Assembly (NCBI GenBank): GCA_033764315.1
Contig: JANRJA010000192.1
Span: forward strand, 1 to 21,489
Reading direction: 5' to 3'
DNA length: 21,489 bases
DNA from: Oculatellaceae cyanobacterium bins.114
Lineage (GTDB): Bacteria; Cyanobacteriota; Cyanobacteriia; Elainellales; Elainellaceae
Positions 3,501 to 21,151 of this stretch are shown piece after piece. Under the pieces are notes generated by a model. The model made no database searches. It worked only from the letters and a program-made list of their open reading frames with translations, and had not been told where the DNA came from. Both the position numbers and the translations under genes were made by a program. Every line of letters begins with the position of its first letter. Positions within the stretch are counted from its first letter, which is position 1.

Positions 3501-3864
3501 CGAAAAAAACTTTGCCTTGCGGGTTGAGCATTTGCTGAATAAGATTCAGGCACCCGAATATCGTCAAGTTAATATTGAAGCTTTAGTGGAATTAGCTGCG
3601 ATCGTTGAGAAAAACCCTGACCTGCGAATTGAGGAATATATTGTGTTGGATGTGTTGATTGGGCATGCGGTGCGCTTAGCCTGGTTAGACAAACACGCTA
3701 AGGAAGGGGATCGGTATGACGAACACAAAGCTTCGGCATGGCGTGCCTTTTATGAAAGTTCACCCTATGACTGTGCTATCTATATCAGTAAAGCCTTGCA
3801 ATTCTTGTCAGAACTCGGTCAGACCACAGTTCCCGAAGAAGTCACATACACACAGATTCCATAA
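598..3864 (+). CDS. Glycoside hydrolase family 15 / phosphorylase kinase alpha/beta-subunit-like protein
   Basis: 1088 aa with motifs TGLLPAS, DAWVRDNVYSI, WGHLQLDATS, PDYGIWERG, LPRESASKEVD, YGCKRFLRDG, IECEWPLF, PLVWAQS and MTPGEKNFA, typical of PhK alpha/beta-like GH15 proteins. Confidence 0.9.
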   Translation: MSTQNTDRDSISHSQQSLVSLRLQLNTYYQEIKTVILARQNPLTGLLPASTAVNTHGNYTDAWVRDNVYSILAVWGLSLAYRKIDEDRGYAYELEHSVVKLMRGLLFAMMRQAYKVERFKETQDLLDALHAKYNLQTGDTVVGDDEWGHLQLDATSLYLLMLAQMTASGLQIIFTLDEVNFIQNLVYYIGRAYRTPDYGIWERGNKINHGKPELNASSVGMAKAALEAINGLDLFGVRGSQSSVIHVLPDEIARARITLESLLPRESASKEVDAALLSVIGFPAFAVENLTLAERTRTNVISKLQGNYGCKRFLRDGHQTVLEVVSRLHYEPWELKQFEHIECEWPLFFTYLLLDALFRGDRDQAVEYRERLENVLVEHNGNSLLPELYYVPKDHIEAERANPRSQPRLPNENVPLVWAQSLFLLGKFLQDGLLAVGDLDPLGRHLRSEHRAEPLVQIALLAEDEMLQSQLATYGIATQTPKQVAPIQVRQASELAAVYSQVGRNDKLLLSGRPKRRLRSLTTSRVFRIRGETIVFLPSFLDQQQFYLTLDNHFLVAQIKGELAYIKRHWSQLGRPTMTLLLTHDMFKYESPLLELIQDLRNGQCNGVTVKLGQLQSFLLTAGLERVDFIHDFQFTQSSVQNAQPKPYYLTFHPDRNWMLGSTQEFMLECETNLHLLITSLRQSNNLYEQIELLEALTRLRGLSFETGIGGPGQSVTVEDLLNEVYEKAGQIQLWAVVRRAAGLLNKVDIGLSDAVTDILVRQKQIAVGKAYSEDSLITSPMSHSEVMEKIREFVRQDIRDRPLTQEILIYLGILIKTDPTLFNGLLTLRVGYLILLITSELARELQVTQDEAYEHLMQLSPFEVKTRLERVLSDYADLDQSLFRQESLRINQQNIQWNVLPEQVETQASVNWWRQRQRDGSLNRVPKNFYPNVWQVMQHCKGVVIGDKLERRNRLDSDPILSEMTPGEKNFALRVEHLLNKIQAPEYRQVNIEALVELAAIVEKNPDLRIEEYIVLDVLIGHAVRLAWLDKHAKEGDRYDEHKASAWRAFYESSPYDCAIYISKALQFLSELGQTTVPEEVTYTQIP

Positions 3865-3897
3865 TTTTGAGGAGAGCAGAAGACATCGTTGTTGCTA

Positions 3898-4797
3898 TTA
3901 GACCGTTATCTGTTGTTTTTCAGTAAAATACATCGCAATTCCTTTTTCGTAGTAAGCCGCTTCATTAATAAAAATGGGATAAACCGTTGATGGCTCTTCA
4001 TAGATGATCACCTGTCCATCAAATGTCAAAAAAATGGGATCTCCCGGATGCAGCGGCTGATAGTCTTTAAATTGCAATTGAGGATGAATCATGGCTTGAA
4101 TTTCACCTAATTGATCTCTGGGATAATCGATCGCCTTGATGTAGCGATAGATAGTTAGAGGTTGGGTCAATGTTTGATTGAAGAACGGCACGGTTTCAGT
4201 ATTAATTTGTTCTAAATAATTCAAAGTTGTGTAGATTAAGGCTTCAGTTTTAAGAAACAAATCGGCAATTAAAACCCCCTGAGCGATCGGGCCAACCTCA
4301 ATCCCTAAGCCAAACTGACCGAGCGATCGCAAAGAATCTTGACCTCGTCCTGAATTGGCAGAGTGGTATATCTGAATCGATGGATGCACTGAACTCAAAT
4401 AAGCCACTAGCTGAAGTGTAAACACATCATCCGTATCAATAATCAGAGTTAACCCCATATTAGCGGTGGTGCTGTGTAAATCTACAATGACATCAGCGGG
4501 AGTTTTGCCCTGTGAGCCAAAAAGTTGTTCAATGTCTCTGGCTCGTAACTCTTCATAGGTCAACAACTCTTCTTTTGTCGCGTCTTGTCGGTTAAAACTG
4601 CGATTTAGATCTTTGTCGATATATCTCACGTTGGCTGCAAATGCGTCTGGATTCCCAAATAGTGTTTGAGTTTCAAAACTTGATCTAGCAATTAAATCAG
4701 GAAATTTCTCAAATTTTTTAATCAGAAATGCTCCGATCAGTTCATTCCCGTGAGTTGCACCTGCGAGTAATACTCGATTGAGTGTTCTCTTTTGCAT
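3898..4797 (-). CDS. Aspartoacylase (AstE/AspA family zinc hydrolase)
   Basis: GATHGNE (Zn ligands H, E), RYIDKDLNRSF, DLHSTTANMG, IEVGP, DYPR, MIHPQLQ and PIFINEAAYYEKG. Confidence 0.92.
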   Translation of the reverse strand: MQKRTLNRVLLAGATHGNELIGAFLIKKFEKFPDLIARSSFETQTLFGNPDAFAANVRYIDKDLNRSFNRQDATKEELLTYEELRARDIEQLFGSQGKTPADVIVDLHSTTANMGLTLIIDTDDVFTLQLVAYLSSVHPSIQIYHSANSGRGQDSLRSLGQFGLGIEVGPIAQGVLIADLFLKTEALIYTTLNYLEQINTETVPFFNQTLTQPLTIYRYIKAIDYPRDQLGEIQAMIHPQLQFKDYQPLHPGDPIFLTFDGQVIIYEEPSTVYPIFINEAAYYEKGIAMYFTEKQQITV

Positions 4798-5228: not shown

Positions 5229-6521
5229 TCAACCCGAAATCGGCAACTGAATCCAAAACTCGGTACCCTGACCCACTTCAGACTGCACGGTCAAAATTCC
5301 CTGATGTTGTCGGGTGACAATTTGACGGGCGATCGCCAGACCTAATCCTGTGCCCTTACCAACGCTTTTAGTGGTGAATAAGTGATCAAAGATTTTGGAT
5401 TTGATCTCGTCTGGGATGCCTTTACCGTTGTCGTGAATGCGGATCTCCACAAGATTTTGGGGAGTGATCACAGCCGTTTGAATCGAGATCGTCTGAGGTT
5501 TGTCTTTGAGGTCTTCAAAGGAAGAATGTTCAGCTGCTTCATCAAACACATCGATCGCGTTTGCCAGGATATTCATAAAGACCTGATTGAGTCGCCCAGG
5601 AAAACATTGAATAAGGGGCAACTCGCCATAGTTCCGAATCACTTGAATGGCAGGGCGATATTCATTGGCTTTCAATCGGTATTTGAGAATTAATAGAGCA
5701 CTGTCGATGCCTTCGTGCAAATCAGCACTCTCCTTGTGTTCTGTATCGGTACGAGCAAAGGTACGAAGGCTATTGCTGATGTTACTAATGCGATCGGTTG
5801 CGTTTTTCATAGAGTCCAGCAACTTTGGCAAATCTTTGCTGAGAAACTCTAAATCAATCTCATTGGCGTGATCTTGTATGTCTGCGGCTGAATCGGGATA
5901 GTGTTGCTGATAGAGTGCTAAATGGTTGAGCAGGTCTTGTATGTAATCTTGGGCATGGTGGATGCTCCCTTCTAAAAAACCGATTGGGTTGTTAATTTCA
6001 TGACCAACCCCTGCCACTAAATTGCCCAGAGTTGACATTTTCTCAGCTTGAACTAATCGCAACTGAGAATGCTTGAGTTGTTCAAGGGCACTGTGCAACC
6101 CATGAGTGCTCTCTGCCACACGAATTTCTAGGGTTTTATTCCATTGCCGTAATTGCAAATGGGTTCTCACTCTGGCCAATAGTTCTTTTTCTTGAAATGG
6201 TTTGGTGATGTAATCGACGGCTCCTAGTTCAAACGCTTTGACCTTATTATCGATATCACTGAATGCTGTCATGAAGATGATCGGAATAGTAGCCATCTCC
6301 GGATTTGCTTTGATTTGCTGGCAGGTTTCAAAGCCGTCAATTCCAGGCATTTGCACATCAATTAAAATTAAATCTGGGAGATAGGTTTGCAGCCGTTTCA
6401 GGGCGCGATCGCCACTAATTGCAGTCGCGACTCCATACCCTACTGAAGTCAACATCTCCGTCACGACTTCTAAGTTAGTGGGCATATCATCTATAACCAG
6501 AATTTTGACGTCGTACCACAT
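5229..6521 (-). CDS. Cytoplasmic hybrid kinase: REC + HisKA + HATPase (NtrB-like H-box)
   Basis: REC: ILVIDD, DLILID, DYITKPF. H-box GHEINNP, N-box NQVFMNILANAID, G1 DNGKG, F/G2 [15 protein letters not shown]. Confidence 0.93.
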   Translation of the reverse strand: MWYDVKILVIDDMPTNLEVVTEMLTSVGYGVATAISGDRALKRLQTYLPDLILIDVQMPGIDGFETCQQIKANPEMATIPIIFMTAFSDIDNKVKAFELGAVDYITKPFQEKELLARVRTHLQLRQWNKTLEIRVAESTHGLHSALEQLKHSQLRLVQAEKMSTLGNLVAGVGHEINNPIGFLEGSIHHAQDYIQDLLNHLALYQQHYPDSAADIQDHANEIDLEFLSKDLPKLLDSMKNATDRISNISNSLRTFARTDTEHKESADLHEGIDSALLILKYRLKANEYRPAIQVIRNYGELPLIQCFPGRLNQVFMNILANAIDVFDEAAEHSSFEDLKDKPQTISIQTAVITPQNLVEIRIHDNGKGIPDEIKSKIFDHLFTTKSVGKGTGLGLAIARQIVTRQHQGILTVQSEVGQGTEFWIQLPISG

Positions 6522-6537
6522 AAATCAAATTCCCTGG

Positions 6538-9150
6538 CTAGATAGTGACTAAATAGTGTTGTAGTAATTCTTCAATCTCTTCTGCTTTAAATTGCTTAGC
6601 GAGTTGCAGCATGGGTTCGGCAAAAGGGAGATAGATGGGGTCGGTGTTGATCAATTGCTCAAGGTGCTCGCGCAACGTTTTTAGATTGGCCTGGTGAGCC
6701 AGCTCTAACAATATTTTTAAGGTGTCGTGGGGGGGCAAAATTAAATCATCGGGCACAGGGTCTGAAGTTGCTTGCTCGTTGACGTTGGGTTCATAAACCC
6801 ACTCTAAATCTAAATGAGTGGATATTAATTGAAACAACAACTGAGCATCTACGGGTTTCGCAATAAAGTCGTCACTACCGTGATCGAGTGCCATCTGCTG
6901 ATCGGCTGGAGATACGGATGCAGATGAAACAATGACCTTAGTGTGTTTAAAAGTTTCGTGACTACGAATGTAGTTCAACAATTCAAACCCATCCATGACT
7001 GGCATCACTAGATCAGCAATGACCAAATCAGGGTGCGTAGTCTGAAGTTGCTCTAAGCCGACTTGACCATTTTCTGCCTCAACCACTGAGAAACCGAGTG
7101 GTTCTAGTAGGTTTAACAGAACAGTCCGGTTTTCCCAGCGATCGTCTACCACCAAAATCTTGCGGCGATCGCCCGTATATCCCACCAGGCGATTGTTGTC
7201 CAGGGGTGTTTCTTGTTGATGCACCCAATCCTCAACCAGAGGTAACTGAATCGTAAAGAAAAACTCACTGCCTTCTCCCAGGCGGCTTCTGACCTGAATG
7301 TTCCCTCCCATCAGGTGAATAATACGTTGACTGATGGCAAGACCGAGTCCGGTTCCTTCTACATTCCACTGGCGATCGCCCACTTGCTCAAACGCTTGAA
7401 ACACTTTGGGGAGATCGGCTTCAGCAATGCCAGCTCCGGTATCGATTACCCTAAACAAAAGGGAGACTTGAGTCTCAGAGAGATTCAGCACGTCCACCTG
7501 TAGAGCCACTGACCCTTGATTTGTAAACTTAATGGCATTGCTCAACAAGTTCAGCAAAACCTGCCGCAACCGCTTTTCATCTGTTTTGACCCTACCCGGC
7601 AAACGAGAACTGGGCTGGTAAACAAACTCAATTCCCTTTTGGTCAGCTCGAAGCTTACATATTTCCACCACGCTTTGTAAGAGAGCAGGTAGATGCACTG
7701 CTGTTGGTGTTAATTCCAGCTTACGAGCTTCGATTTTAGACAGATCTAAAACATCGTTAATCAAAGTGAGCAGATGAGAGCCACATTGGTAGATGACGTT
7801 AACCCCATTGCGGTCTTGATCCGATAAAGTCTTAACCCGTGCCAAAATTTGGGCATACCCCAAGATGCCATTCAGGGGCGTTCGCAATTCGTGGCTCATG
7901 TTTGCCAAAAATTCGCTCTTAGCCTGGTTCGCTGCATCGGCTTGTTCTTTAGCCTGGGCTAACTCAGCAGTCCGCTCTGCTACCCGATGTTCTAGGGTTT
8001 CAAAAGACGTCTTGAGTTGTCCTGCCATTTGGTTAAAGGTTCGGGCTAGTGTGCCGACCTCGTCTTGGGTCATGACGGGCACCGTTTGAGTTAAATCTCC
8101 CTCGGCTAAGCGGGTGGCGGCTGCACTGATTGCCAAAATCGGACGGGTAATGCGTCGAGATAGCAGATAAACTGCAATTAGGAGCGTGCTAGAGGATAAA
8201 AAGCCAATGATCAAAATATTGCGAGCTAATTGCTGAGCCGGAAGAAAGGCTTGAGACTGGCTAATCTCAGCCATTAACGCCAGGTTCTGTGCAGGCAACC
8301 AGCGATAGACCCCCACCACCGGAACCCCCTGATAATTGACATAACGACCAAAGCCACTCTGTTGATCAATGGCGCGATCGATGCCCTCGCTGTGAATCTC
8401 CTCCGTCGTTGGGGTTGCATTGGCAGGGTCAGAAGCGGGTTGGTTAGTATCTTGCTTGGAGATAAAAATAGTTTCTCCCTTTGCCTGACCCACCAGATAG
8501 GTTTCTGCTGTTTCACCTAACCCCGTATTATCTCGAATCAGAGTATCTATCTCATTCAGATTGAGATCAGCAACGAGAGCCGCCATGCGGATTCCCTGCA
8601 CATCCACAATGGGCACGGCAACGGTAATGTCTGCTTTTTGAGTGGTTGGGGAGATATAGAAATTGGGGACGACCGTGTTGATGCGATCGCGGGTGAAGTA
8701 AGTGGTTGGGTCGCCCAAGGGACGGTAGGTTCCTTCTAAACTGGGATCAATAGAGTCAAAGACCACAAAGCCACTATTGCGAGTGATGCGAATGCTGTGA
8801 AGATTGGGTTTGATCTCAATGAGCCGAGTGATGTATTGATCCAGCGACTGATAGGCATTTTGATAAGACAGTTGAGTAGACTCGGTTGTCAGTAAGGTCT
8901 GAATGGCTGATTGAATCTCGGATTCTTGGCTCACCAACAAAATATCGCGTAACTGATCTTCAACCCATTTATTCAGCTGATAACTCTTGAGTTGGGCTGC
9001 CACCGTGAGTCGGTTGATCACTTCTGTTTCTAAAGAAGCACGGGCTTTGAAGTAAGAACCAACGGCGACAGCACTAATAGTAATGACCGATAGCACCGAA
9101 AAATAACTGACTAACTGGGTTAATAGGCTGGTATGCTGCCAACGTTTCAT
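6538..9150 (-). CDS. Membrane hybrid sensor histidine kinase (Cache-HAMP-HisKA-HATPase-REC)
   Basis: Two hydrophobic helices flank a Cache-like periplasmic region. HAMP (ITRPILAI...[13 protein letters not shown]), [24 protein letters not shown] and REC DLVIAD. Start placed at ATG 9150 (MKRWQ...), which overlaps the upstream stop as ATGA, rather than at 9201. Confidence 0.92.
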
Positions 9151-10574
9151 GCCCTTGCCTCCCATTCCATCCAAATGTCTTGGATACGAGCGATCGCCCA
9201 ATCAACTGCTTGTTCGGGCGATGCGTTGTCTTGAAGCACTTTAAGAACAGTTTTGCCCCAAACTTTTTGACCTAAAATTTGACTATAAGCCGGATGTAAG
9301 ACTTCATAGGGCAGAGGGCTGGGTTGTGTTTGAATCTTGAGTGCGGCTGAGAGGTGAGGATCTTCAGCATTGCGCCAATAGGGATCTGACAAGAGTTGCG
9401 GCATAACGGGCAGAAACCGACCCTTAAAGCCCTCCTTCAGCAATTGATTGAGATGCGTGGGTTGAATCAAATAGTTGACAAAGTCTTTAGCCGCTTCGGG
9501 GTGTTTGCCTGCTGTGAGCACAATAACCTGTTTGATGCCTTTTCTGGGCTGCATAGGCGTCCCATCCCGTTTTTGTGGCCAATTGACCATAGCGATTTGG
9601 CGGTAGCGATCAAAAGCATCTTGGTTATATTGATTGCGTTCTAATCGTTGGGTGAGGGGAATAGACAAGGTTGGATTATGGGTCATCAAAATTCCACCGT
9701 CTAAAAATCTAAAGTTGTTTCCCGATGCAGTCCAATCAGTTGCATCGGGAGGCACAAATCCCTGTTGATAAAAGCCTGTATATTCCTGTAAAACGTCAAT
9801 AAATTTCTGTCGGTTGTCGGGTTGGGGCAACACCAATTCTCCATCGTTGCTGACCACCGTTGCATTGTGAGCATCTAAAAACCACCGCAGTGACGTAAAC
9901 GTATCGACCCCTGATGCTGACATGCACAGCCCAACACCATAGATCTTGGGATATCCCTGAGCATGCAATTGTTGCTGGGACTGTTGCCAAAATTGCCAAA
10001 ATGCATCCCACTCTTGAGGAATGTCTTGGGTTGTTTGGTTAATACTTTCTAACAAATTAGACCAGCAATGAATATATTCCCCAGCATTACCGATGGGAAT
10101 TGCATAATAATGCCGCTCATTCAAAGTCTTATTACGATACGTCACTTGCAACAGAGTATCTGGAGTATAAGAAGCTTTGTTTTTTTCGAGTACATCTGAT
10201 ACGTCAGTGAGTTGATTTGCCCAAGCGAGCCTGGGGGCTAAATTTGCATCCAGGGAAATGGCAAATACAACATCTGGAACCTGATGTTTTTCTGGCTCTG
10301 CGATCGCTTTTAATAGCTCTTGCTCAAGGATGTTGATCTGCATCAACTTCAAGTTGGCTCTCAATCCTGATGCTTCTTCCCATCGGCGAACCAACTGGCT
10401 CACCCCTGCATTCTCTTCTGGCAAAAAGCCTTGCTCCCACCAAATCATTAGATCGGTTTGATCAATCGGGGCAGGTGTGTCTAAGGAGGTAAATTGGGAC
10501 TGTGGAGTGCAGTTTGATAACCCCATCCCCAACCCAAACAGGGATAGTCGTGTAAAATCTCGCCGGGTGAGCAT
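9147..10574 (-). CDS. Extracellular solute-binding protein (family 1-like), predicted Tat lipoprotein
   Basis: N-terminus MLTRRDF (twin-Arg), hydrophobic stretch and LSNC lipobox. [26 protein letters not shown] and [10 protein letters not shown] are typical of sugar-type ABC SBPs. 475 aa. Confidence 0.85.
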
Positions 10575-11144: not shown

Positions 11145-11468
11145 ATGCCCGCAGCTTACATTCAAGACGAAGCCGAGTTTGATGCTCTTCTGAGTGCAGA
11201 GTCATTGTTTGTGGTAGATTGCACTGCAACTTGGTGTGGTCCCTGCAAATTGATTGCTCCCTTAATTGATCAACTTGCTGATGAATATGGCGATCGCACT
11301 AAAGTCTTCAAATTAGACCTTGATGCTAATAAAGAGGTGGCTAAGCGATATGGCATTCGCAGCATTCCTGCTGTGATGTTTTTCACTAAAGGCGATTTAG
11401 CAGAGACGTTGGTTGGTGCGAAAAAATATGAAGATTACAGTGCTGCTTTGGGTAAGTATCTGGGCTAA
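11145..11468 (+). CDS. trxA: Thioredoxin
   Basis: 107 aa with WCGPC active site, YGIRSIP cis-Pro loop and F-x-KG...VGA. Probably a TrxA/m-type paralogue. Confidence 0.93.
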   Translation: MPAAYIQDEAEFDALLSAESLFVVDCTATWCGPCKLIAPLIDQLADEYGDRTKVFKLDLDANKEVAKRYGIRSIPAVMFFTKGDLAETLVGAKKYEDYSAALGKYLG

Positions 11469-11680: not shown

Positions 11681-14320
11681 CTATTTAGAAATAACAGGTT
11701 CAATCAGTTGCACAATCGCTTCATCATCAAAGCTTTCAACTAATGTAATGACATAGTTGTAAAAATCGGGATACTCAGGCTCAAACTGAGTCACTTCTTC
11801 TATAATTTGCCGGACAAATCCACATCGTGCTGCATTATGCAAACTCAATAGCTGATTAGCAGGTGGAAATAGAATTGTGTTTTTATCAATTCCATTAGAT
11901 TCAGATTTGGTAGCCGAGTCAGAAATCGTATCTGTGCTATAAATCCACTCTAATTTGAGCAATTGTTGAAGTTGATAAAACAACTCTACGGCTTGAACAG
12001 GTTTAGGGAGAAAGCTGTTTCCCCCAACTTCAATACTATGAAAGCGATCGCTATCAGATACGCTAGCAGAAGACACAATAATAGGAATTGTCCGAAATTG
12101 TTCTGAGTTCCTAATGTGTTGAATGAGTTGATATCCATTGAGCACGGGCATTGCCAAATCAACAATGAGCAAGTCAGGCAGCAAGTGTTCAATCTTCTCA
12201 ATAGCATCTTTTCCGTTTGATGCTTCGCTCACTTTAAATTGCAAAGGTTTGAGCAGGCTAGAAACAACGGCACGATTCTCCCAATGATCATCCACAACCA
12301 AAATATGACGTTGCTGTCCACTATATCCTTTAATTTTTTGCTCTTGCAGCGAACTCTGAGTCGTAACCCACTGGTGGTCACAGGGACAACTGATCGAAAA
12401 CTCAAATGTACTGCCAACTCCGACCTGACTCGATACCTTAATTTCGCTGCCCATTAAATGAATAATATTTTGGCTAATCGTTAGCCCTAATCCAGTTCCT
12501 TCACTGTTTGTCTTGGCATAATCGGTTTGCTCAAACGGCATAAAGATCTTATCTAGATCATCGGGTGCGATTCCAACGCCAGTATCTCTAACCACAAAAC
12601 ACAGATGAGCCATTGATGGATCGGTGTCAGGCGTAAAATCTACGTGGAAACTCACTGTGCCAGAGTTAGTAAATTTAACCGCGTTCCCCAGCAAGTTAAT
12701 CAAGACTTGCCGCAACCGTTTTTGATCACTCGTGATGCAAATGGGAAGATTTTTAGATGAAGAAAACTGAAACCCAAGGTTTTTTTGATCTGCCCCAATC
12801 CGACATATTTTGACGACAGATTGCAAAAACTCAGGAAAATGAAACGTAGCTGGCTCCAGTTCAAGTCGATTGGCTTCGATTTTAGAAATATCTAAGATGT
12901 CGTTAATCAACGTTAAAAGATGAAACCCACAGTTATAGATAACTTCAACTCCCTGCCTTTCAGAAGATGTTAAGACGGGGGAGTCTTGCAAGATTTGAGC
13001 ATAGCCTAACACTCCGTTGAGCGGAGTTCTTAACTCGTGACTCATGTTGGCTAAAAATTGACTCTTGGCGTGATTTGCTGTATCTGCTTTATCTTTGGCA
13101 ATTCTTAGCTCATGGGTTCTCTCTTCGACTCGTTGCTCTAACTCAACCACAGAAGCTTGCAATTGAGAGGTCATGCTTTTTACAGCATGACTTAGAATGT
13201 CTAACTCATCTCCTTCACCTTCAGCTATTTCAGCTTGATTGAGAGGGGTTTGAGTACGACGAAGGGTGTCGTTGACTGTGACCGTTCTACACGTCTCAAG
13301 TAAAGGGTTGAGCCTTTTATTGAGCTGTCGAACAAAAAGAGCCGTCACAATAGCTAGGATTGACCCTGCCCCTAATACACCGCCAAAGGTGATTCGCAAT
13401 GCGGGATAAAGCACCACCGATTTGGGAACAGATGCCAGCATGATCCAATTGGTGCCGTCAATGTGTTCAAACGCCCAATAAGCTGTGTCGGTTTGCACAA
13501 TTCCAGTGGGGCGATCGCCGATCTGTTGCCAAACCTCTGTCAATTCAGTAGCATCGGGCACCTCAGAATAGGTTGCAAGATTACTCGCCTTTTCGGGATT
13601 AGGCGGATAAGCCAACAAATTGCCCTTGTCAGTCAAGATCATAAAGTAGCCCCCACCCCATTCTGGAGGGGATTGCACCTCTTTTGTGAGATCTCGAATT
13701 GTAATATCTAACCCCACCACACCCAATAAATCTCCGTCTCTGGTAAAGACAGGAGCCGTAACAGTGGTCATGGGAATGTTAAACCAGTTGTATGGCTCTA
13801 GCCAGATTGCCTCTCTAGCGTTGACGGGTGCGGTGTAATACACATTGTCAAAGCAGGAAGGCTCTAACTGACAAATATCGGTTAACCGGATGTTGTGTAA
13901 CGGTTTGGGCAGGGGAACTCCGACTTCATTGGGAATCCCCTGCTCATAAAAAGCGTAGGGCCAAAACGTTCGACGGTCAGTAAAAATACGATAAGGAGCT
14001 TGCCCAAATCCTGCGCCAACAGTTAACGAAGACCGTTTTCGCAGCATTTCTATAATGGCTTGTTGATAAACATCAGGGTCTTGCACCCCGATACTTTCTA
14101 AGACAGTCATGGTAGCTGTCAGGCTAATCATGGACTGCTCAGCCTTACCTAACTTTCCCTCAATGTCTTTGACCTGAGTGCTCAAATTATTTTCGATTTC
14201 TTGAATGGCTTGGCGTTCCAACGCTCGATAGAAAAAGAAGGCTGTGCCACCCAGTCCAACTAAGGCTCCCACTAAGACATAGAAAAACAAGCGTGCCCCA
14301 ATGGAGTTTTTGTAGATCAT
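11681..14320 (-). CDS. Membrane hybrid sensor histidine kinase (dCache-HAMP-HisKA-HATPase-REC)
   Basis: TM1 about aa 11-31. dCache hallmarks YY...WLEPY...TVTAPV...GVVGLDI and ILTDKGNLLAYP. TM2 about aa 308-330. [35 protein letters not shown] and REC DLLIVD. Confidence 0.93.
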   Translation of the reverse strand: MIYKNSIGARLFFYVLVGALVGLGGTAFFFYRALERQAIQEIENNLSTQVKDIEGKLGKAEQSMISLTATMTVLESIGVQDPDVYQQAIIEMLRKRSSLTVGAGFGQAPYRIFTDRRTFWPYAFYEQGIPNEVGVPLPKPLHNIRLTDICQLEPSCFDNVYYTAPVNAREAIWLEPYNWFNIPMTTVTAPVFTRDGDLLGVVGLDITIRDLTKEVQSPPEWGGGYFMILTDKGNLLAYPPNPEKASNLATYSEVPDATELTEVWQQIGDRPTGIVQTDTAYWAFEHIDGTNWIMLASVPKSVVLYPALRITFGGVLGAGSILAIVTALFVRQLNKRLNPLLETCRTVTVNDTLRRTQTPLNQAEIAEGEGDELDILSHAVKSMTSQLQASVVELEQRVEERTHELRIAKDKADTANHAKSQFLANMSHELRTPLNGVLGYAQILQDSPVLTSSERQGVEVIYNCGFHLLTLINDILDISKIEANRLELEPATFHFPEFLQSVVKICRIGADQKNLGFQFSSSKNLPICITSDQKRLRQVLINLLGNAVKFTNSGTVSFHVDFTPDTDPSMAHLCFVVRDTGVGIAPDDLDKIFMPFEQTDYAKTNSEGTGLGLTISQNIIHLMGSEIKVSSQVGVGSTFEFSISCPCDHQWVTTQSSLQEQKIKGYSGQQRHILVVDDHWENRAVVSSLLKPLQFKVSEASNGKDAIEKIEHLLPDLLIVDLAMPVLNGYQLIQHIRNSEQFRTIPIIVSSASVSDSDRFHSIEVGGNSFLPKPVQAVELFYQLQQLLKLEWIYSTDTISDSATKSESNGIDKNTILFPPANQLLSLHNAARCGFVRQIIEEVTQFEPEYPDFYNYVITLVESFDDEAIVQLIEPVISK

Positions 14321-14326
14321 GAAGGC

Positions 14327-17300
14327 TTACCTAGAAAACGTTGGCGATCGCAATTCAGACAACAGTTGACGTTCAGTAAAGTGTGTTAGGTAAGTTTGAA
14401 CCAACTCAGTGGGATTGACAACAGCCGTCGATATAGGAAAGGTAGAGACAACCGAATTAGACACTTGCAGGAACGTTTCAAGATAACTGTGAGCATCATA
14501 AAAATGATCAGTCACCAAAGGACGAATGGCGGTTAGGGGGTGTGAGTTATCGATGCACTCCTGGTGAACCCAATCTTGCCATTGTTTATAGGGCACTAAC
14601 TCCACTGGAAAACCAAACTGGTTGAGAGCCTGAATCAGCGATCGCCAGGGTAGAGAGGTAGGATAAACAATATGACTCAGAGCCTTGTCCAGGTGACTTG
14701 TGATCTGACGACAGGCATAGTCAATGGGGATCAGGTTAACAGCACCCTCAAATATTGGGGCTGCCTTGAGTCGAATTATACCTAAAATCAACCGTGCCAT
14801 TAGATCATCGGTCGGCCCTACCCCAGTAACACTATGACCTGTTAACATTCCAGCCCGATGGATTGTCGTTGGAATACCCCTTTCTAAAGCGGTTGTCATA
14901 AGGCGTTCGCCTACCCACTTGGTTTGGGCATAGCCACCCCCAACCTGATTAAAATCAGGAACGCTGGAGTTTTCATCGACTAGGCGATGACTCCGCAGAG
15001 GAAACGGGTTGACATCACACAAAGAGTGCAAAATATCGATGGTTGAAACAAAGTGAACTGGAATTGAGTTTAACCCGGCTAACCGTAAAACCTCCTGAGT
15101 ACCCACGACATTAGCTAACCGCAGTTGCTCATAAGACCGCATCAGATTAACCTCAGCCGCACAATGAAAGATGGTATGAATGCAGCCCGCTAGACCTTTT
15201 AAGCTAGGTAGACCAAACTGAGGTCGCGCCAAATCTCCAGGAACGACTACCACTCGACTGTCTAGCTCACTCGACTCAAGCATAAAGCGATCTAAGCTTT
15301 TTTTAAGGCGATGGAAGCCCTCTTTGGGGTTAGAGGCTCGCACCAGACAAAAAATGGTTTCAGAGGTGTCACGCAACAGCTGGTCTAACAAAAAGCTACC
15401 TAAAAAGCCAGTGGCTCCAGTTAATAAAATGCCTTTTTGAGGCTTAATTGGAAAACTCAGATGTTGTGGAGTAATAGTGTCATGAAGTCGTGCATCTATA
15501 TGTAAATCAGTTTCCATGAAGGGTGATTGCCTTGGTGAATTTTGACAAGAAATAAGATGCACGAGATCTCGAACAGTTGGACTGTTTAAGAACTCAAATA
15601 GGCTGATGGTGACTGAAAATTGCAGTTCAATTTGAGATAAGAGTTGCACGGCTAAGAGAGAGTGTCCTCCTAAGTCAAAGAAGGAATCTTCAATGCCGAC
15701 CTTACAATCGAGCAACTCAGACCAAATCTGACAGATTTGCGTTTCGATAGGGGTTTGAGGAGACACATAAAGTGAATCAAGCGTGCGATCGCCCCCAATA
15801 TCAGGAAGAGCTTTGCGATCAATCTTGCCATTCAAGGTGAGGGGCAAATCGGTTAAGCAACAGATTCGTTGAGGAATCATGTAATCGGGTAAGGTTTGTC
15901 GTAGCAATGCCCGCACTTCTTTGATTAATCGCTGATGTTTTAACTCAGCATAAGGCTCATGCGCGATCGCCTGACCCAACGCAGGAGTCGAGAAGTTAAC
16001 TGCTGTCAGGGGCAAATCATGGCGGCTAAACCGAACCTCATAGCATCCGAGCATAGGGGCAGGATGAAACGAGACACGATAGGACATCTGCTTGCCTAGC
16101 GACTCAAACACTGACAAATCAACCCCGATCAGGGTTGAGGGTTGAGCCATGACTCGTTGCAACTCGGCCACTGAACCTGTAGGAGTGTGGGCCAAATGAC
16201 GCGTAACCGCCAGTTGAGATTGAATTCGAGGGTTTGGAATATTGTAAATTCGTCCAGCGTGAAGGTTTTGGGAAGACAACAATTCTGCGAGTTCCGCGAT
16301 TGAAATGGACTGCTTTTGCCAATCGAGCACAAAATCTAGCTCTGCATCGCTCAACACTGGCTTAGCCTCAGCATACAGAAAAACATCGAACCGATATTGA
16401 GTTAATTCATTGTGATGCTGGCTCCGCTTCAGTTGCACATCAACACTGACCCCTGGTAACTGTTGCGTCAATTCATAGAAGTAAGCTGGGTTCAACAAGA
16501 GTTCATGTTCTTGTTGGATTTGCTGATTGATCAGTTGGTGCAGGGCTGCAATCGAGTGATGCGAAGCAGTCGTCTCTTTAAGAGAATTGCCCGACGCATG
16601 ATAAAGCGCATGTTCAGTATGAAACGCTTCCAACAAAGAGGCATCCCGCACATCGCCAATAAACAGACATCCCCCTGGAGCTAAAAGGGCGATCGCACTT
16701 TTAATCACCTCTGCTAGATAGGCTTGAGACGGAAAATATTGAATAACTGAGTTAATGACGATGACATCAAACTGAGACGAAAGTTCACCCACTTCATGCG
16801 CAGCCAAACAATGCAATGACACCTTTTGCTCAAGGGACGGATTCGTTGCCAGTTGAGTGTGAATATGACGAATTGCCTCAGCCGAAACATCTATCCCTGT
16901 ATAGTGCTCACACTGAGGAGCTAACTCAAATAAAAGCAAACCTGTGCCACAGCCAATTTCTAGAATGTTTTGGGGGTGAACTGAGGAAATCTGAGCAACT
17001 GTGTGTTGTACCCAATCCAACATCTCATCTGTGGTGAATGGCAAACTTGTGACTCGATTGATCCATCCGACCGTATTAAAGGTCGTTGCAGAACTCTGGC
17101 TATAGGTGGCATCCCAGACACTTCTCCAACTCTCAACATGGTTACTAGATTGATTAGCCGTAGGGACAACATAAGCCAGGAGTTGATGATCGTCGGACGT
17201 AGATCGAGCCACGACAACACAACTTTCAACCGCAGGATGCTGGCTAATCGTAGCTTCGATTTCGCCTAATTCCACGCGAAAGCCTCGAATTTTGACCTGA

Positions 17301-18502
17301 TGATCACTTCTACCCAGATATTTCAGATTGCCATCCGGCAGCCAACACCCCAAATCACCCGTTTTATAGAGTCTGCCCAATTGGGAGTGGTGGATAAAGC
17401 GGTCAGCGGTTAGCTGGGGCTGATAGAGATAACCCCGTGCTAACTTAGGACCCTGAATAAAAATTTCGCCAACCTCTCCCTCAGAAACAGGATTTAGGTC
17501 AGCATCAAATAGAAAAATCTCAGTCTGCGGCAGTGGCTTGCCAATTGACGGAGGTTCTGTTGACCCTTGAGTCACGTGCACTACCGTGGAATACGTCGTG
17601 TCTTCAGAGGGACCATACAAGTTATAAACCTGTTGAACATGCCCCAATTCATATAACTGCTGAGCGATTTTGTTAGGTAATGGCTCACCTGCCAGGTTAA
17701 CCACTGTCACAGATGCAGGAATACTTTGAGTTTTTAAGAGAGCCGCTGCTGCCGAAGGAACTGTATTAATCAGTGAAATCTTACGCTGAGTTGTTTCGGA
17801 GAGCTGACTGAGCGTTAAAGCGTTTTCGGTTAAGATAATGGTTCCTCCAGCCGCTAACGTTCCAAAAATTTCAAATACGGAGAGATCAAAACAAATGGAG
17901 GTGCTTGCCAACACTCCACTCAGTTGTTCAGGGCTGAAGAAGTCCAGGATCCACTCTAGGAAAGCGACTGTATTACGGTGTTCGATCGCTACTCCCTTGG
18001 CTTTTCCCGTGGAACCTGATGTGTAGATCACGTACGCCAGATGGTGAGGCTCAGTCTGAGTAGGCAGTGAATGGGTTGGCAAAGCCGCAATATCAGTGTG
18101 TGCAGCGGCGATATCTAGGGTTGGAGTGAGTGAGGATAGGGAATCGCAAACCCCCGCTTTTGACAGTAATAATACGGGGTTGGCGTCACTCAGAATAGTG
18201 GACAGACGATTTAAGGGATAAGACGGATCAAGTGGTAGGTAAGCTGCGCCTGCTTTTAAGATAGCCAACAAGCCAACAATTAAGTCGGGCGATCGCTCCA
18301 AACAAATCCCGACTAAACTATCGGGGTGAAGATCAAAAGTACTTAAGTATCGAGCCAGTTGATTAGAGCGATGATCAAGTTCCTCATAGGTGAGTAACTG
18401 CCCATCAAAATCAATTGCGATCGCGTTAGGGGCTTGCCGGACTTGAGCTTCAAAGAAGGTGTGAATTAGCCTGGAGGTAGGTAATTTTGTTGAAAGGTAC
18501 AC
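14327..18502 (-). CDS. Stand-alone NRPS-like enzyme A(N-MT)-T-R: adenylation domain interrupted by an N-methyltransferase, carrier domain, thioester reductase; no C domain
   Basis: A motifs LTYEEL, YVIYTSGSTGKAKG, FDLS, NLYGPSE, GEIFIQG..LARGY, YKTGDL, GRSDHQVKIRGFRVELGEIE. MT insert ILEIGCGTG, NSVIQYFP, GGCLFIGDVR, NELTQYRFDV. Then A9 LPDYMIP and A10 NGKIDR. T domain FFDLGGHSL. R domain LLTGATGFLG, FVST, GYAQTKW. Likely GTG start at 18502, 6 nt after AAGGAG (the ORF track starts at 18550). Confidence 0.93.
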   Translation of the reverse strand: MYLSTKLPTSRLIHTFFEAQVRQAPNAIAIDFDGQLLTYEELDHRSNQLARYLSTFDLHPDSLVGICLERSPDLIVGLLAILKAGAAYLPLDPSYPLNRLSTILSDANPVLLLSKAGVCDSLSSLTPTLDIAAAHTDIAALPTHSLPTQTEPHHLAYVIYTSGSTGKAKGVAIEHRNTVAFLEWILDFFSPEQLSGVLASTSICFDLSVFEIFGTLAAGGTIILTENALTLSQLSETTQRKISLINTVPSAAAALLKTQSIPASVTVVNLAGEPLPNKIAQQLYELGHVQQVYNLYGPSEDTTYSTVVHVTQGSTEPPSIGKPLPQTEIFLFDADLNPVSEGEVGEIFIQGPKLARGYLYQPQLTADRFIHHSQLGRLYKTGDLGCWLPDGNLKYLGRSDHQVKIRGFRVELGEIEATISQHPAVESCVVVARSTSDDHQLLAYVVPTANQSSNHVESWRSVWDATYSQSSATTFNTVGWINRVTSLPFTTDEMLDWVQHTVAQISSVHPQNILEIGCGTGLLLFELAPQCEHYTGIDVSAEAIRHIHTQLATNPSLEQKVSLHCLAAHEVGELSSQFDVIVINSVIQYFPSQAYLAEVIKSAIALLAPGGCLFIGDVRDASLLEAFHTEHALYHASGNSLKETTASHHSIAALHQLINQQIQQEHELLLNPAYFYELTQQLPGVSVDVQLKRSQHHNELTQYRFDVFLYAEAKPVLSDAELDFVLDWQKQSISIAELAELLSSQNLHAGRIYNIPNPRIQSQLAVTRHLAHTPTGSVAELQRVMAQPSTLIGVDLSVFESLGKQMSYRVSFHPAPMLGCYEVRFSRHDLPLTAVNFSTPALGQAIAHEPYAELKHQRLIKEVRALLRQTLPDYMIPQRICCLTDLPLTLNGKIDRKALPDIGGDRTLDSLYVSPQTPIETQICQIWSELLDCKVGIEDSFFDLGGHSLLAVQLLSQIELQFSVTISLFEFLNSPTVRDLVHLISCQNSPRQSPFMETDLHIDARLHDTITPQHLSFPIKPQKGILLTGATGFLGSFLLDQLLRDTSETIFCLVRASNPKEGFHRLKKSLDRFMLESSELDSRVVVVPGDLARPQFGLPSLKGLAGCIHTIFHCAAEVNLMRSYEQLRLANVVGTQEVLRLAGLNSIPVHFVSTIDILHSLCDVNPFPLRSHRLVDENSSVPDFNQVGGGYAQTKWVGERLMTTALERGIPTTIHRAGMLTGHSVTGVGPTDDLMARLILGIIRLKAAPIFEGAVNLIPIDYACRQITSHLDKALSHIVYPTSLPWRSLIQALNQFGFPVELVPYKQWQDWVHQECIDNSHPLTAIRPLVTDHFYDAHSYLETFLQVSNSVVSTFPISTAVVNPTELVQTYLTHFTERQLLSELRSPTFSR

Positions 18503-18508
18503 GTTTAA

Positions 18509-18514
18509 CTCCTT
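18509..18514 (-). promoter_or_regulatory. Shine-Dalgarno site of the NRPS-like gene
   Basis: AAGGAG 6 nt upstream of the in-frame GTG at 18502. Confidence 0.7.
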
Positions 18515-18633
18515 GATGAAGACGACCGACAACAAGGTTATTAAACGCATTTATACGGAAAAATGATAAAGTGCTTCTACTGATTTTTGAGTAGATTTTT
18601 ATTGTATTCACAGTGTTTTTACGGATAGGGATA

Positions 18634-19965
18634 TTAATACTGATCCTGATTTAAGAGTGCTTGCCTTTGTAACCGTGATTGTGACAGTGGAATGGTAACT
18701 GTAAATACCGAACCTTTTGAAGATGACTGATACTGAATCGTTCCGTGATGGCGATTCATGATGATTTCATAACAAATTGACAACCCTAAGCCTGTTCCTT
18801 TGCCAACCGGCTTAGTGGTAAAAAACGGATCAAAAACTTTCTCTTTAATGCAATCTGGTATACCGATCCCATTATCCTCAACGTCAATTTTGATCGATTG
18901 CTCACCAACCTGATAAGTTGACAAAACAATCGTCGGGAGTTGAGTTTGAAATGCTTCAGATCTTAATGCCTTCTCATCAATCGCATCGATCGCATTAGCA
19001 ATGAGATTCATAAATACCTGATTTAGAAAACCAGGAAAACACTCTACTAACGACTCTACATAAAAATTCTTGATCAGTTCAATCTTAGGACGTGTTGCTG
19101 AACTGCTTAATCGATGCCCTAATAGCAATAGAGTATTGTTAATTCCCTCATGGATATCCATTTCTCTTAAAAGTGAACTTCCAGTTCTGGAAAAAATTTG
19201 AAGAGATTGAATGATTTCTTGAGTTCGAGAGGTTCCCGTTTGGATCGAATTTAACAGGTTAGGTAAATCAGTTTGAATAAAATCCCAATCGATTTCCGTC
19301 ATTAATTGTTGAATCTCATGTGGCGGATTTGGATAGTGATTGGTATATAAATCAATTACTTTTAATAGACTATCTGTATATAACTGAAGGTGCTCTAGAT
19401 TGCCATGAATAAAATTGATCGGATTGTTGATCTCGTGGGCGATCCCTGCCATCATTTGCCCAAGACCCGCTAACTTTTCGGCTTGAATTAACTGCACCTG
19501 AGCTTGCTGAAGACTACTGAGAGTTTGTTGCAGTTTTTCTTCAGTTTCCTGATGGGTTTTAATTTCTTGTAAAAGTTGTTGATGAGAGTGCTTTAGCTGC
19601 AAGTGAACTGAGATGCGGGCGATCGCCTCTCGAAGCTGCACTGGCTTAGTAATATAATCAACGGCTCCTACCTCAAATCCCCTGACTTTGCTGGTCTCAT
19701 CAGTCAGGGCAGTCATAAAAATAATTGGAATTGAACGGGTTAATGGATCGGCTTTTAGAGCTTGACATGTCTCAAAGCCATCCATACCATTCATACAAAT
19801 ATCGAGCAAGATCAAATCAGGAAGGGTTTGTCGGGCTTTTTTTAGTGCACTTTCTCCACTTTTTGCCACAAAGCTATCAAATCCAGTTTGGTCAAAGGCT
19901 TCAACTAAAACTCGTAAATTGGTGGGCGTGTCATCAACAATCAAAATAGAGGCAGAGGGAACCAT
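18634..19965 (-). CDS. Cytoplasmic hybrid kinase: REC + HisKA + HATPase
   Basis: REC: ILIVDD, DLILLD, DYITKP. H-box [40 protein letters not shown]. Start placed at ATG 19965 ([16 protein letters not shown] upstream) because 20109 overlaps the upstream gene. Confidence 0.92.
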
Positions 19966-20038: not shown

Positions 20039-21151
20039 TTAGTTACGTAACACGACGTCATCAGATGCATTAAACATAATTTGGAATCGAGTTTTAGGAG
20101 ACACCTCAAACTTAAGCTCTCCTTGGAGTTGTCGGGTCAAGATTTTGACGAGTTTTAACCCCAAAGTTGTTGGATTAGTAATATCAACACTGTGTTCTGG
20201 AAAACCAATTCCATCATCTTCAACAGTGAGGTGACATAAGCCTTCATCAGATCGAGATAAAGAGACTACAATTTCTCCTTTTGATTGACTCTTAAAGGCA
20301 TACTTTAAAGCATTTGTCAAAAGCTCATTAATGATTAAAGAACAAGGGATAGCTTTATCAATTCCTAAGAAAAATTTATCGGCATGAATATAAATTGAGA
20401 CGGTATTAGTTTTGTCATATACCTCTAATAAAGCTTTGCAGAGTTGTGACAGAAAGATATTGAAGTCGATGTGAGCAAAACTTTTTGTGCCATACAGCAA
20501 ATGATGGATCATGGCGATCGTATCAATCCGGGTCTGGCTGTCGTGGAAGGCATTCAGTGCAACCGGATCGGTAATGCACGACGCTTGTAGTTTGAGAATG
20601 CTAGAGACGACTTGTAAGTTGTTTTTAACGCGATGATGAACTTCTTGTAGAAGAATATCTTTTTCAGCCAGGGCTAAGCGAATTGTCTCTAAATAAGAGG
20701 CTTGAATTTCAAGCTGTTCTTGCAATTTTGAGTTGAGTTTTTTGATCTGTAAACTGGCGGTTTGGATGCTCAACTGATGTTGAATTCGAGCTAACACCTC
20801 TTCTTTTTGAAAAGGTTTAGTAATGTAGTCTGCTCCTCCAACTTTAAAGCCAGTAATTTTGTCACTCACTTGATCTAAAGCACTTAAAAAGATAATCGGT
20901 ATTTCTCTAGTTCTGTCATCTTTCTTTAACTGCTCACAGGCTCTAAATCCATCAATACCGGGCATCCGAATATCGAGCAAAATTAGATCTGGTTTAATTA
21001 GAATTGCTTTTTCACAGGCACTGCTGCCATTTTTGGCAACAAATACTCTGAAACCGGATTGCTCAAGCAGATCACTCAATACCTGGAGATTAGCAGGATT
21101 GTCATCAGCAATGAGGATCGATTGAGAAGTCTGGTAACTTGAGCTATCCAT
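20039..21151 (-). CDS. REC + HisKA_2-type histidine kinase
   Basis: REC: ILIADD, DLILLD, DYITKPF. HisKA_2 H-box EVHHRVKNNLQ, NELLTNALKYAF, DDGIG, TLGLKLV. Confidence 0.92.
   Translation of the reverse strand: MDSSSYQTSQSILIADDNPANLQVLSDLLEQSGFRVFVAKNGSSACEKAILIKPDLILLDIRMPGIDGFRACEQLKKDDRTREIPIIFLSALDQVSDKITGFKVGGADYITKPFQKEEVLARIQHQLSIQTASLQIKKLNSKLQEQLEIQASYLETIRLALAEKDILLQEVHHRVKNNLQVVSSILKLQASCITDPVALNAFHDSQTRIDTIAMIHHLLYGTKSFAHIDFNIFLSQLCKALLEVYDKTNTVSIYIHADKFFLGIDKAIPCSLIINELLTNALKYAFKSQSKGEIVVSLSRSDEGLCHLTVEDDGIGFPEHSVDITNPTTLGLKLVKILTRQLQGELKFEVSPKTRFQIMFNASDDVVLRN

Follow-up and report, generated by a model that had tools for sequence, protein, structure and literature searches.

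Covariation of a single-module NRPS-like reductase with an adjacent dCache sensor kinase points to a putative synthase-receptor cassette in cyanobacteria

A 21,489-nucleotide stretch of DNA from Oculatellaceae cyanobacterium bins.114 (contig JANRJA010000192.1 of assembly GCA_033764315.1; hereafter, the window) encodes a single-module enzyme resembling nonribosomal peptide synthetases (NRPSs), P0001, and, directly downstream, a membrane-bound hybrid sensor kinase, P0122. Across 44 of the 46 synthase-kinase pairs that we assembled, the ligand-binding module of the kinase co-varies with the substrate code of the enzyme. Judging from these sequence patterns, it is reasonably probable that the two genes form a cassette of a synthase and its own receptor, which comes in strain-specific dialects and uses an N-methyl-alaninol-type amine as its signal. 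An earlier note on this DNA predicted the chemistry of the enzyme but missed the main feature, namely, the adjacent conserved amine-type dCache kinase whose pocket co-varies with the adenylation (A) domain code. The two genes carry the following features, where MT, T, R, and TM stand for methyltransferase, thiolation, reductase, and transmembrane, respectively.

14327..18502, minus strand: single-module NRPS-like synthase A(MT)-T-R (P0001), 1391 aa from a GTG start.
17153..18475, minus strand: N-terminal part of the A domain up to A8 (residues 10-450); Pfam PF00501 (E 1e-75) and TIGR01733; best single-domain PDB match, McyA 8JBR.
17591..17887, minus strand: specificity pocket D206-Y304, DLFNNALTY by motif placement, the code being completed by K893.
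15923..17149, minus strand: S-adenosylmethionine-dependent MT inserted between A8 and A9, with motifs EIGCGTG, NSVIQYFP, and GDVR of the N-methyltransferase (N-MT) type.
15551..15739, minus strand: thiolation (carrier) domain, GGHS with Ser948; PF00550 (E 3e-15).
14504..15430, minus strand: thioester reductase domain, TGATGFLG, ST, and YxxxK; TIGR01746 above cut-off; MxaA R domain (E 3e-58).
11681..14320, minus strand: hybrid sensor kinase TM-dCache_1-TM-HisKA-HATPase-REC, 879 aa (P0122), starting 6 bp past the synthase stop.
13676..14083, minus strand: membrane-distal ligand-binding dCache module of P0122 (residues 80-215), co-varying with the A-domain code.

The synthase open reading frame (ORF) spans 14327-18550 on the minus strand if started at the first ATG; the GTG at 18502 gives the 1391-aa P0001, which has the length of the database protein, and homologues also start at this position. 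Domain searches of P0001 detected no condensation (C) domain, as the earlier note had stated, and the protein therefore has the makeup of a stand-alone A-T-R (NRPS-like) reductase, with A, T, and R in a single chain. The code previously read as DLFNNALTYK was recovered as D206, L207, F210, N246, N269, A271, L295, T303, and Y304 plus K893, residues that were placed by motif and not by direct alignment to GrsA. McyA (8JBR) was the closest solved match to the A core (E 1.7e-59; runner-up, 3e-43), and the two share the motifs FDLSVF, LINTVP, VNLAGE, NLYGP, and EDTTYS. P0001 thus carries an Ala code of the McyA-A2 type, and we take the McyA-A2 module to load L-Ala; none of the papers that we found in the open-access literature searched printed this code. 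The MT sits between A8 and A9-A10, again in agreement with the earlier note, and its top match is 5WMM (E 3e-48), which we take to be the interrupted A domain of TioS with its N-MT. Since EIGCGxG, NSVxQYFP, and GDVR are presumably N-MT-type motifs, position and motifs alike identify an A8-A9 interrupted A domain with an N-MT. The R domain, with motifs TGATGFLG, ST, and YAQTK and the MxaA R domain as its best solved match, scored 244 bits against TIGR01746 (cut-off, 213). The A3/A10, carrier Ser, Rossmann, and YxxxK motifs are all intact in P0001, and the catalytic motifs are intact in nearly all 46 members of the synthase family. The single-module architecture, which had been regarded as unusual, proved to recur in ~35 to 40 protein clusters of 1370 to 1500 aa among the best 120 matches to P0001; the named homologues sharing it are cyanobacterial, with identities from 76% down to ~40%. 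These features indicate that P0001 is a real, intact, and conserved enzyme.

The kinase gene accompanies this particular type of synthase. P0122 has hydropathy peaks at residues 11-30 and 310-333, and its H428 and D721 are invariant. Directly downstream of the full-length A-MT-T-R gene in five of six relatives lies a P0122 orthologue (49 to 82% identity); the sixth relative (G040) instead has a dCache kinase of another kind, together with a small-molecule N-methyltransferase. A synthase-first scan of GTDB returned at least 74 loci. Among the loci listed, the orthologue lay within one gene of the synthase at 11 of 14 stand-alone A-MT-T-R loci, the other three comprising two with a receptor that has an amino-acid-permease-like domain and one that ends at a contig edge, whereas it was found at none of the 59 other NRPS loci and was also absent at the single A-T-R locus. 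Scanning from the sensor side, we obtained 27 matches in 25 of the 389 genomes of one family, and the best 20 of these 27 were all synthase linked (19 directly and 1 across one gene). The window's order yielded 26 matches in 21 of 57 genomes; the best 8 had a synthase within one intervening gene, and 2 more had an R domain directly upstream, the one seen whole being an MT-less A-T-R. In a phylum-wide sample, the sensor was present in 10 of 401 genomes at E 1e-30. The linkage of synthase and kinase holds across several families. A metagenome scan with the full kinase alignment returned unrelated kinases only; the patterns came from the generic kinase core, and the scan was not used.

Evidence for a functional tie also comes from the 46 pairs, of which 33 were first assembled and 13 were new after removal of 5 duplicates. 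Their codes are DLFNNALTY (25 pairs), DILQLG(M/L)(I/V)W (11 pairs), DxP(Q/E)LG(M/L)VW (8 pairs), and DVQFIA (2 pairs). According to the accessible part of one study, DILQLGMIWK is a Gly code and V236/Q239 denotes Pro (PMC12283262); both Pro-code (DVQFIA) enzymes lack the MT. On FastTree trees of the 44 non-Pro pairs, which form three classes (25 L-Ala, 11 Gly, and 8 DxP), class changed only twice on the tree of the membrane-distal dCache module, the minimum possible. The A-core tree also gave 2 changes, a circular figure; on the other trees, the counts were 12 (MT), 14 (R), 11 (proximal dCache module), and 14 (kinase). Shuffled classes changed ~17 times on average, with a minimum of 12 to 14, although the pairs include kin and are not independent, such that these shuffle figures overstate significance. 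For the first 33 pairs, IQ-TREE separated the nine Gly-like partners from the rest of the sensor tree (support 94/86; 0 of 500 shuffles), a grouping that the kinase data reject (AU p 4e-60); the "Gly-like" label of these nine systems was later split, once links to racemases emerged. Pairwise comparisons localize the divergence. Between P0021/P0136 and P0114/P0180, identity reaches 98% over the kinase and 84% over MT and R but falls to 32% over the A core and 49% over the distal sensor; between P0033/P0130 and P0111/P0215, the values are 100% (kinase), 34% (A core), and 49% (distal sensor). Cys150 and Cys156 are both present in 25 of 25 L-Ala partners, and the 19 Gly and DxP partners all lack both. 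When the 12 new non-Pro pairs were classified by their nearest sensor, the L-Ala or Gly-like class was called correctly in all 12.

The same switch of class is seen at a single chromosomal site. Nine genomes of genus g81 carry the cassette beside the same upstream ORF(s), in the L-Ala form in three, the Gly form in four, and the DxP form in two, and the occurrence of all three classes at one site in one genus argues against a housekeeping use. In this genus (L268, L270, L272-L275, L279, and L280), the cassette is divergent from a 360-aa ORF and a 463-aa ORF, which we take to resemble psbA (D1) and malic enzyme, respectively; in L279 and L280, the smaller of these two ORFs is split. The two co-varying tracts lie ~3.5 kb apart with DNA that does not co-vary between them, and no mismatch between code and sensor was seen in the pairs examined. 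From these patterns, we infer selection for a match between the amino acid that the enzyme would load and the ligand that the sensor would bind. The family thus shows two marks of quorum-sensing systems, namely, linked genes for synthase and receptor and joint variation of signal determinant and sensor.

The DxP class bears on the substrates of these enzymes. At one locus (L264:5039-9217, minus strand), a DLPQLGMVW A-T-R is fused to an alanine racemase, and at another (L259:8221-9450, plus strand), a racemase gene lies between synthase and sensor, 6 bp past the DMPQLGMVW synthase gene. No other racemases were found among the compared loci. Given that a racemase is fused or adjoining at these two loci, the DxP class (D[ML]PQLGMVW) may load D-Ala.

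The nearest structures to the sensor by sequence, profile, and fold are the amine sensors PacA (7PSG), Methanosarcina 3LIB, and MkcA (9HEH), the fold comparison having used a predicted model (pLDDT, 92.5); amino-acid dCache domains are also among the PDB matches. In an alignment to PacA 7PSG, Y161/Y162, W179, M184, T186, and D205 of P0122 match F188/Y189, Y206, M215, S217, and D235 of PctD, pocket positions of the dCache_1AM amine sensors as given in the accessible part of their description (bioRxiv 10.1101/2023.04.06.535858). All 46 pairs keep Y161, W173, W179, and D205 unchanged. The PctD W155 counterpart may be Y122 of the FWPY motif, a candidate by motif likeness at a position that hidden Markov model alignments did not place. 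At the position of PctA R126, the carboxylate-binding Arg two residues before the pocket aromatic, P0122 has N159, and Arg occurs there in only 1 of 46 pairs; P0122 lacks this mark of the dCache_1AA amino-acid sensors. The P0122 pocket looks suited to a small carboxylate-free amine.

Other receptors were observed beside related synthases. At L079:7954-10608, L100:4107-7772, and L264:1841-4903, a second receptor type has an amino-acid-permease-like membrane domain fused to a PAS-kinase, PAS-GGDEF-EAL, or kinase-REC; these receptors are homologous (46 to 67%). At L026:3818-12265 (minus strand), the synthase is a variant with the code DQEDLGTII, and after it come a methyltransferase of the NNMT/PNMT family and a dCache kinase of a different kind. 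At L118:7751-14059 (plus strand), an MT-less A-T-R that shares the L-Ala code precedes, by 6 bp, an unrelated hybrid kinase (HAMP-PAS), after which comes an adenylate cyclase. Sensor domains resembling those that partner Gly enzymes occur on chemoreceptors near CheY/CheW-like ORFs at L236, L237, L238, L241, L250, and L251, with no synthase nearby; such synthase-free chemoreceptors could possibly eavesdrop or mediate taxis to choline-like amines. P0012-P0015 and their relatives are NRPSs of two modules that end in a reductase and harbor an embedded PilZ domain (PF07238); in some of them, module 1 has the same Ala code.

If P0001 and P0122 are a synthase and its receptor, the A domain would load L-Ala onto the T domain, and the embedded MT would N-methylate the carrier-bound Ala, most likely once but perhaps more often. 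The R domain would then release it by NAD(P)H reduction as N-methyl-alaninal and would probably reduce it further, to N-methyl-alaninol or a relative with more methyl groups. The product, a small amine with no carboxylate, would reach the periplasm, where P0122 would bind it in its aromatic-plus-Asp dCache pocket outside the inner membrane and would signal through its own REC domain and the neighboring REC-kinase. Relatives would load Gly, probably D-Ala, or Pro and would have matched receptor pockets, resulting in strain-specific dialects comparable to those of agr or ComQXPA.

Alanine loading, N-methylation, and reductive release, all proposed in the earlier note, are supported by homology; its list of products was reasonable but unranked, and a pyrazine, which it had entertained, was discarded as chemically unlikely, since N-methylated aminoaldehydes should be unable to aromatize to a neutral pyrazine. 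Because the pocket of a conserved kinase partner co-varies with the A code, the product is a probable signal and a monomeric amino alcohol is favored. Within the product question, we regard the mono-methyl alcohol as a plausible candidate at somewhat below even chances, a di- or tri-methyl alcohol as somewhat unlikely, and an aldehyde or dimer as a little more unlikely again. The MT-less Pro variants hint that a secondary amine is enough, and for an N-MT in a first module, no iterative methylation was seen in the accessible part of one report (PMC6920865).

By analogy, P0001 and P0122 would work like an autoinducer synthase-receptor pair, their membership in quorum sensing being putative. A broader and more tentative proposal, to which we give well under an even chance, is that cyanobacteria possess a native quorum-sensing mode based on N-methyl amino alcohols. 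Its dialects would lie in side chain and stereochemistry (N-methyl-L-alaninol, N-methyl-D-alaninol for the racemase-linked D[ML]PQLGMVW enzymes, N-methylethanolamine or choline for the Gly enzymes, and prolinol), the A core and receptor pocket would be exchanged together as matching partners, and receptors and chemoreceptors without a synthase would listen in.

Parts of this arrangement have precedents. CqsA/CqsS, LuxM/LuxN, and LqsA/LqsS are quorum systems consisting of a synthase and a hybrid kinase, and agr and ComQXPA are dialect systems. As in these systems, the P0001 gene adjoins that of a membrane hybrid kinase, and the part that would set the signal changes in step with the sensor, a pattern that the kinase core does not follow; unlike them, P0001 is an NRPS-like reductase, the sensor is an amine-type dCache domain, and the variable tracts are ~3.5 kb apart. 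Pvf of Pseudomonas is a single-module NRPS that acts on one small amino acid and gives an autoregulatory signal. HamD of Burkholderia cenocepacia makes the signal valdiazen, according to the accessible part of its description (PMC12838280). P0001 resembles both in its single module, its one small amino acid, and its (putative) role in signaling, but tailoring genes, such as one for a diiron oxygenase, are lacking at its locus, the predicted product has no N-N bond, and a co-varying receptor is encoded next door.

Minimal A-T-R enzymes such as ATRed of Xenorhabdus indica yield pyrazines (PMC7586950), and fungal single-module NRPSs form piperazines (cited in PMC8658869, which also covers pyrazine-forming minimal A-T-R enzymes), as far as the accessible parts of these papers go. 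P0001 shares with them one module, the lack of a C domain, and reductive release of an amino acid, but it differs in its embedded N-MT, small aliphatic substrate, and fixed receptor partner. The accessible portions of two further reports describe a fungal ATRR that converts glycine betaine to choline (bioRxiv 10.1101/559534) and the diatom PtNRPS1, which makes the growth regulator tryptophanol (PMC13194791). These A-T-R1-R2 enzymes are NRPS-like and convert a free amino acid reductively into an amino alcohol, as P0001 is predicted to do; in contrast to them, P0001 has one R domain, methylation would occur on the carrier, the host is bacterial, and a sensor kinase is encoded alongside. The A domain of McyA module 2 (8JBR) has identical Ala code residues and the terminal module of MxaA (4U7W) the closest solved R domain, but both of these modules sit in large assembly lines with C domains. 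Like the dCache_1AM sensors PctD, PacA, McpX, and Methanosarcina 3LIB, P0122 keeps the equivalents of PctD F188/Y189, Y206, M215, S217, and D235 and has no carboxylate Arg; unlike them, it apparently lacks the R103-D133 pair, has an insertion after FWPY and, in L-Ala partners, a Cys pair, and is encoded by a synthase-tied gene. We found no description of the synthase-kinase cassette in the open-access literature, most subscription papers being outside the search. The main text of a phylum-wide survey of cyanobacterial NRPSs, in its accessible part, contains none of the terms "kinase," "signal," and "PCC 7437."

In addition to the kinship among pairs, several observations weigh against a dedicated synthase-receptor cassette. 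The remaining 7 of the 27 sensor matches in the 389-genome family, and 16 of the 26 in the window's order (9 of these on chemoreceptors), have no synthase within 1.5 kb; the existence of such synthase-free related sensor domains implies that the ligands may be ordinary environmental amines. The sensor profile (A3) was built mostly from synthase-linked sensors (19 of 23 rows), which raised their scores, and 11 of the first 33 pairs were joined only by equal contig size, with adjacency not seen. Two MT-less A-T-R synthases lack the expected partner, L257 having no receptor beside it and L098 no P0122-type kinase. The finer DxP class was called correctly by nearest sensor in 1 of 4 new cases and wrongly in the other 3. 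Moreover, P0122 has Asp-Pro where 7PSG, 3LI8, and 9HEH carry Asp-Arg, the Arg presumably being R103 of the R103-D133 pair above the pocket; since this upper pair is seemingly absent, P0122 was not filed as a strict dCache_1AM member. No exporter or DNA-binding regulator (transcription factor) is conserved in the cassette across the loci compared, and neither a family search nor tblastn found a phosphopantetheinyl transferase in this genome, which we put down to the incomplete assembly. Finally, two- versus four-electron reduction is not readable from sequence.

This last point leads to the alternative that keeps the synthase-receptor pair but has the R domain stop at the aldehyde, with N-methyl-alaninal or its dimer (tetramethyl-dihydropyrazine/piperazine) as the signal, in the manner of ATRed and fungal A-T-R enzymes. 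An aldehyde is the classical product of R domains, the minimal bacterial ATRed yields a pyrazine (PMC7586950, in its accessible part), and P0001 has one R domain versus two in the alcohol makers ATRR and PtNRPS1, a difference that counts against an alcohol. We nevertheless consider this alternative fairly unlikely: N-methylation blocks aromatization, a piperazine needs an extra reductase, the listed loci showed no obvious gene for a separate imine reductase, and the pocket resembles those for small monoamines. We also take the R domain of MxaA, the best match, to be the four-electron, alaninol-forming reductase of an Ala-loading module. A lower probability attaches to the idea that the kinase senses the substrate of the enzyme (L-Ala, Gly, or D-Ala) and switches the enzyme on, the product serving defense, nitrogen handling, or the like. 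Among the rivals, it is the chief one to account for the co-variation just as well, as the same pattern would be expected, and it draws support from the permease-like receptors at L079, L100, and L264 and from the amino-acid dCache domains among the PDB matches. Against it stand the missing RxW carboxylate clamp of amino-acid sensors, the invariance of the cation-pi position W179, and the fact that the top structural neighbors are amine sensors.

It is slightly less probable again that the product is a choline-like metabolite (an osmolyte precursor, a lipid head group, or a cue for other species) and that the kinase provides feedback on its level without self-signaling. Choline itself would result if the Gly version methylated three times, choline is also what fungal ATRR produces according to the accessible part of its report, and synthase-free Gly-type sensors sit on chemoreceptors; this alternative leaves unexplained why three interchangeable amino-acid classes with matched receptors occupy one site within one genus and why the spread is so patchy (sensor in 25 of 389 and 21 of 57 genomes), and the sensor domain is extracytoplasmic. 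Very improbable, in our view, is that P0001 serves a larger NRPS in trans as a loading module, or has partly lost its activity, and that the kinase lies beside it by chance. The region is indeed kinase rich (5 of the window's larger genes encode kinases), the genome is 9% incomplete, and no phosphopantetheinyl transferase was found. However, tblastn detected no second NRPS A domain in the genome (90.7% complete), making a partner assembly line unlikely; the trans-acting module, which the earlier note had named as a refuting case, was thus rejected, and P0001 appears to act alone. The intact catalytic motifs also speak against this explanation, as does the rarity of the kinase type: the genome has ~130 kinase-core matches versus ~5,200 ORFs, and the sensor subfamily of the dCache kinase is present in one copy. 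Linkage across several families and co-variation largely refute a chance association.

Beyond the synthase and its putative receptor, the window encodes further signaling proteins upstream of P0001.

18634..19965, minus strand: soluble REC-HisKA-HATPase protein, a probable phosphorelay partner, 82% identical and syntenic in G001, a genome of the same genus.
20039..21151, minus strand: REC-HisKA_2-HATPase protein, possibly part of the operon, syntenic only in G001.

A gene of the REC-HisKA-HATPase type adjoins the cassette in most loci, and Sfp-type phosphopantetheinyl transferase genes adjoin two cassettes (L024:17078-17711 and L100:12321-13055). A second sensing unit at 5229-10574 (minus strand) comprises a periplasmic solute-binding protein, a dCache-HAMP hybrid kinase, and a REC-kinase, an arrangement that we take to be like LuxP/LuxQ; it was rejected as part of the cassette, being not syntenic with the synthase even in G001. 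Ordinary neighbors at 598-4797 and 11145-11468 include a glycosyl hydrolase 15/phosphorylase-kinase-like gene, an aspartoacylase, and a thioredoxin. A promoter/terminator scan was uninformative (11 promoter-like sites versus 20 in shuffled sequence).

To our knowledge, no private cell-to-cell signal has yet been defined genetically in cyanobacteria. P0001 and P0122 fit the pattern of such a signal, with an enzyme that probably turns alanine into a small methylated amine. The cassette offers a candidate synthase, a candidate receptor, and a short list of cheap ligands for cyanobacterial signaling. Cultured strains that have it include Tolypothrix tenuis PCC 7101, Nostoc carneum NIES-2107, and Stanieria cyanosphaera PCC 7437. 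If the synthase-receptor reading is true, methylated amino alcohols would constitute a new signal class, one that is partly isobaric with choline and hence easily missed; the family would also contribute an adenylation code that is probably for D-Ala, along with matching sets of synthase and sensor that could serve as orthogonal channels.

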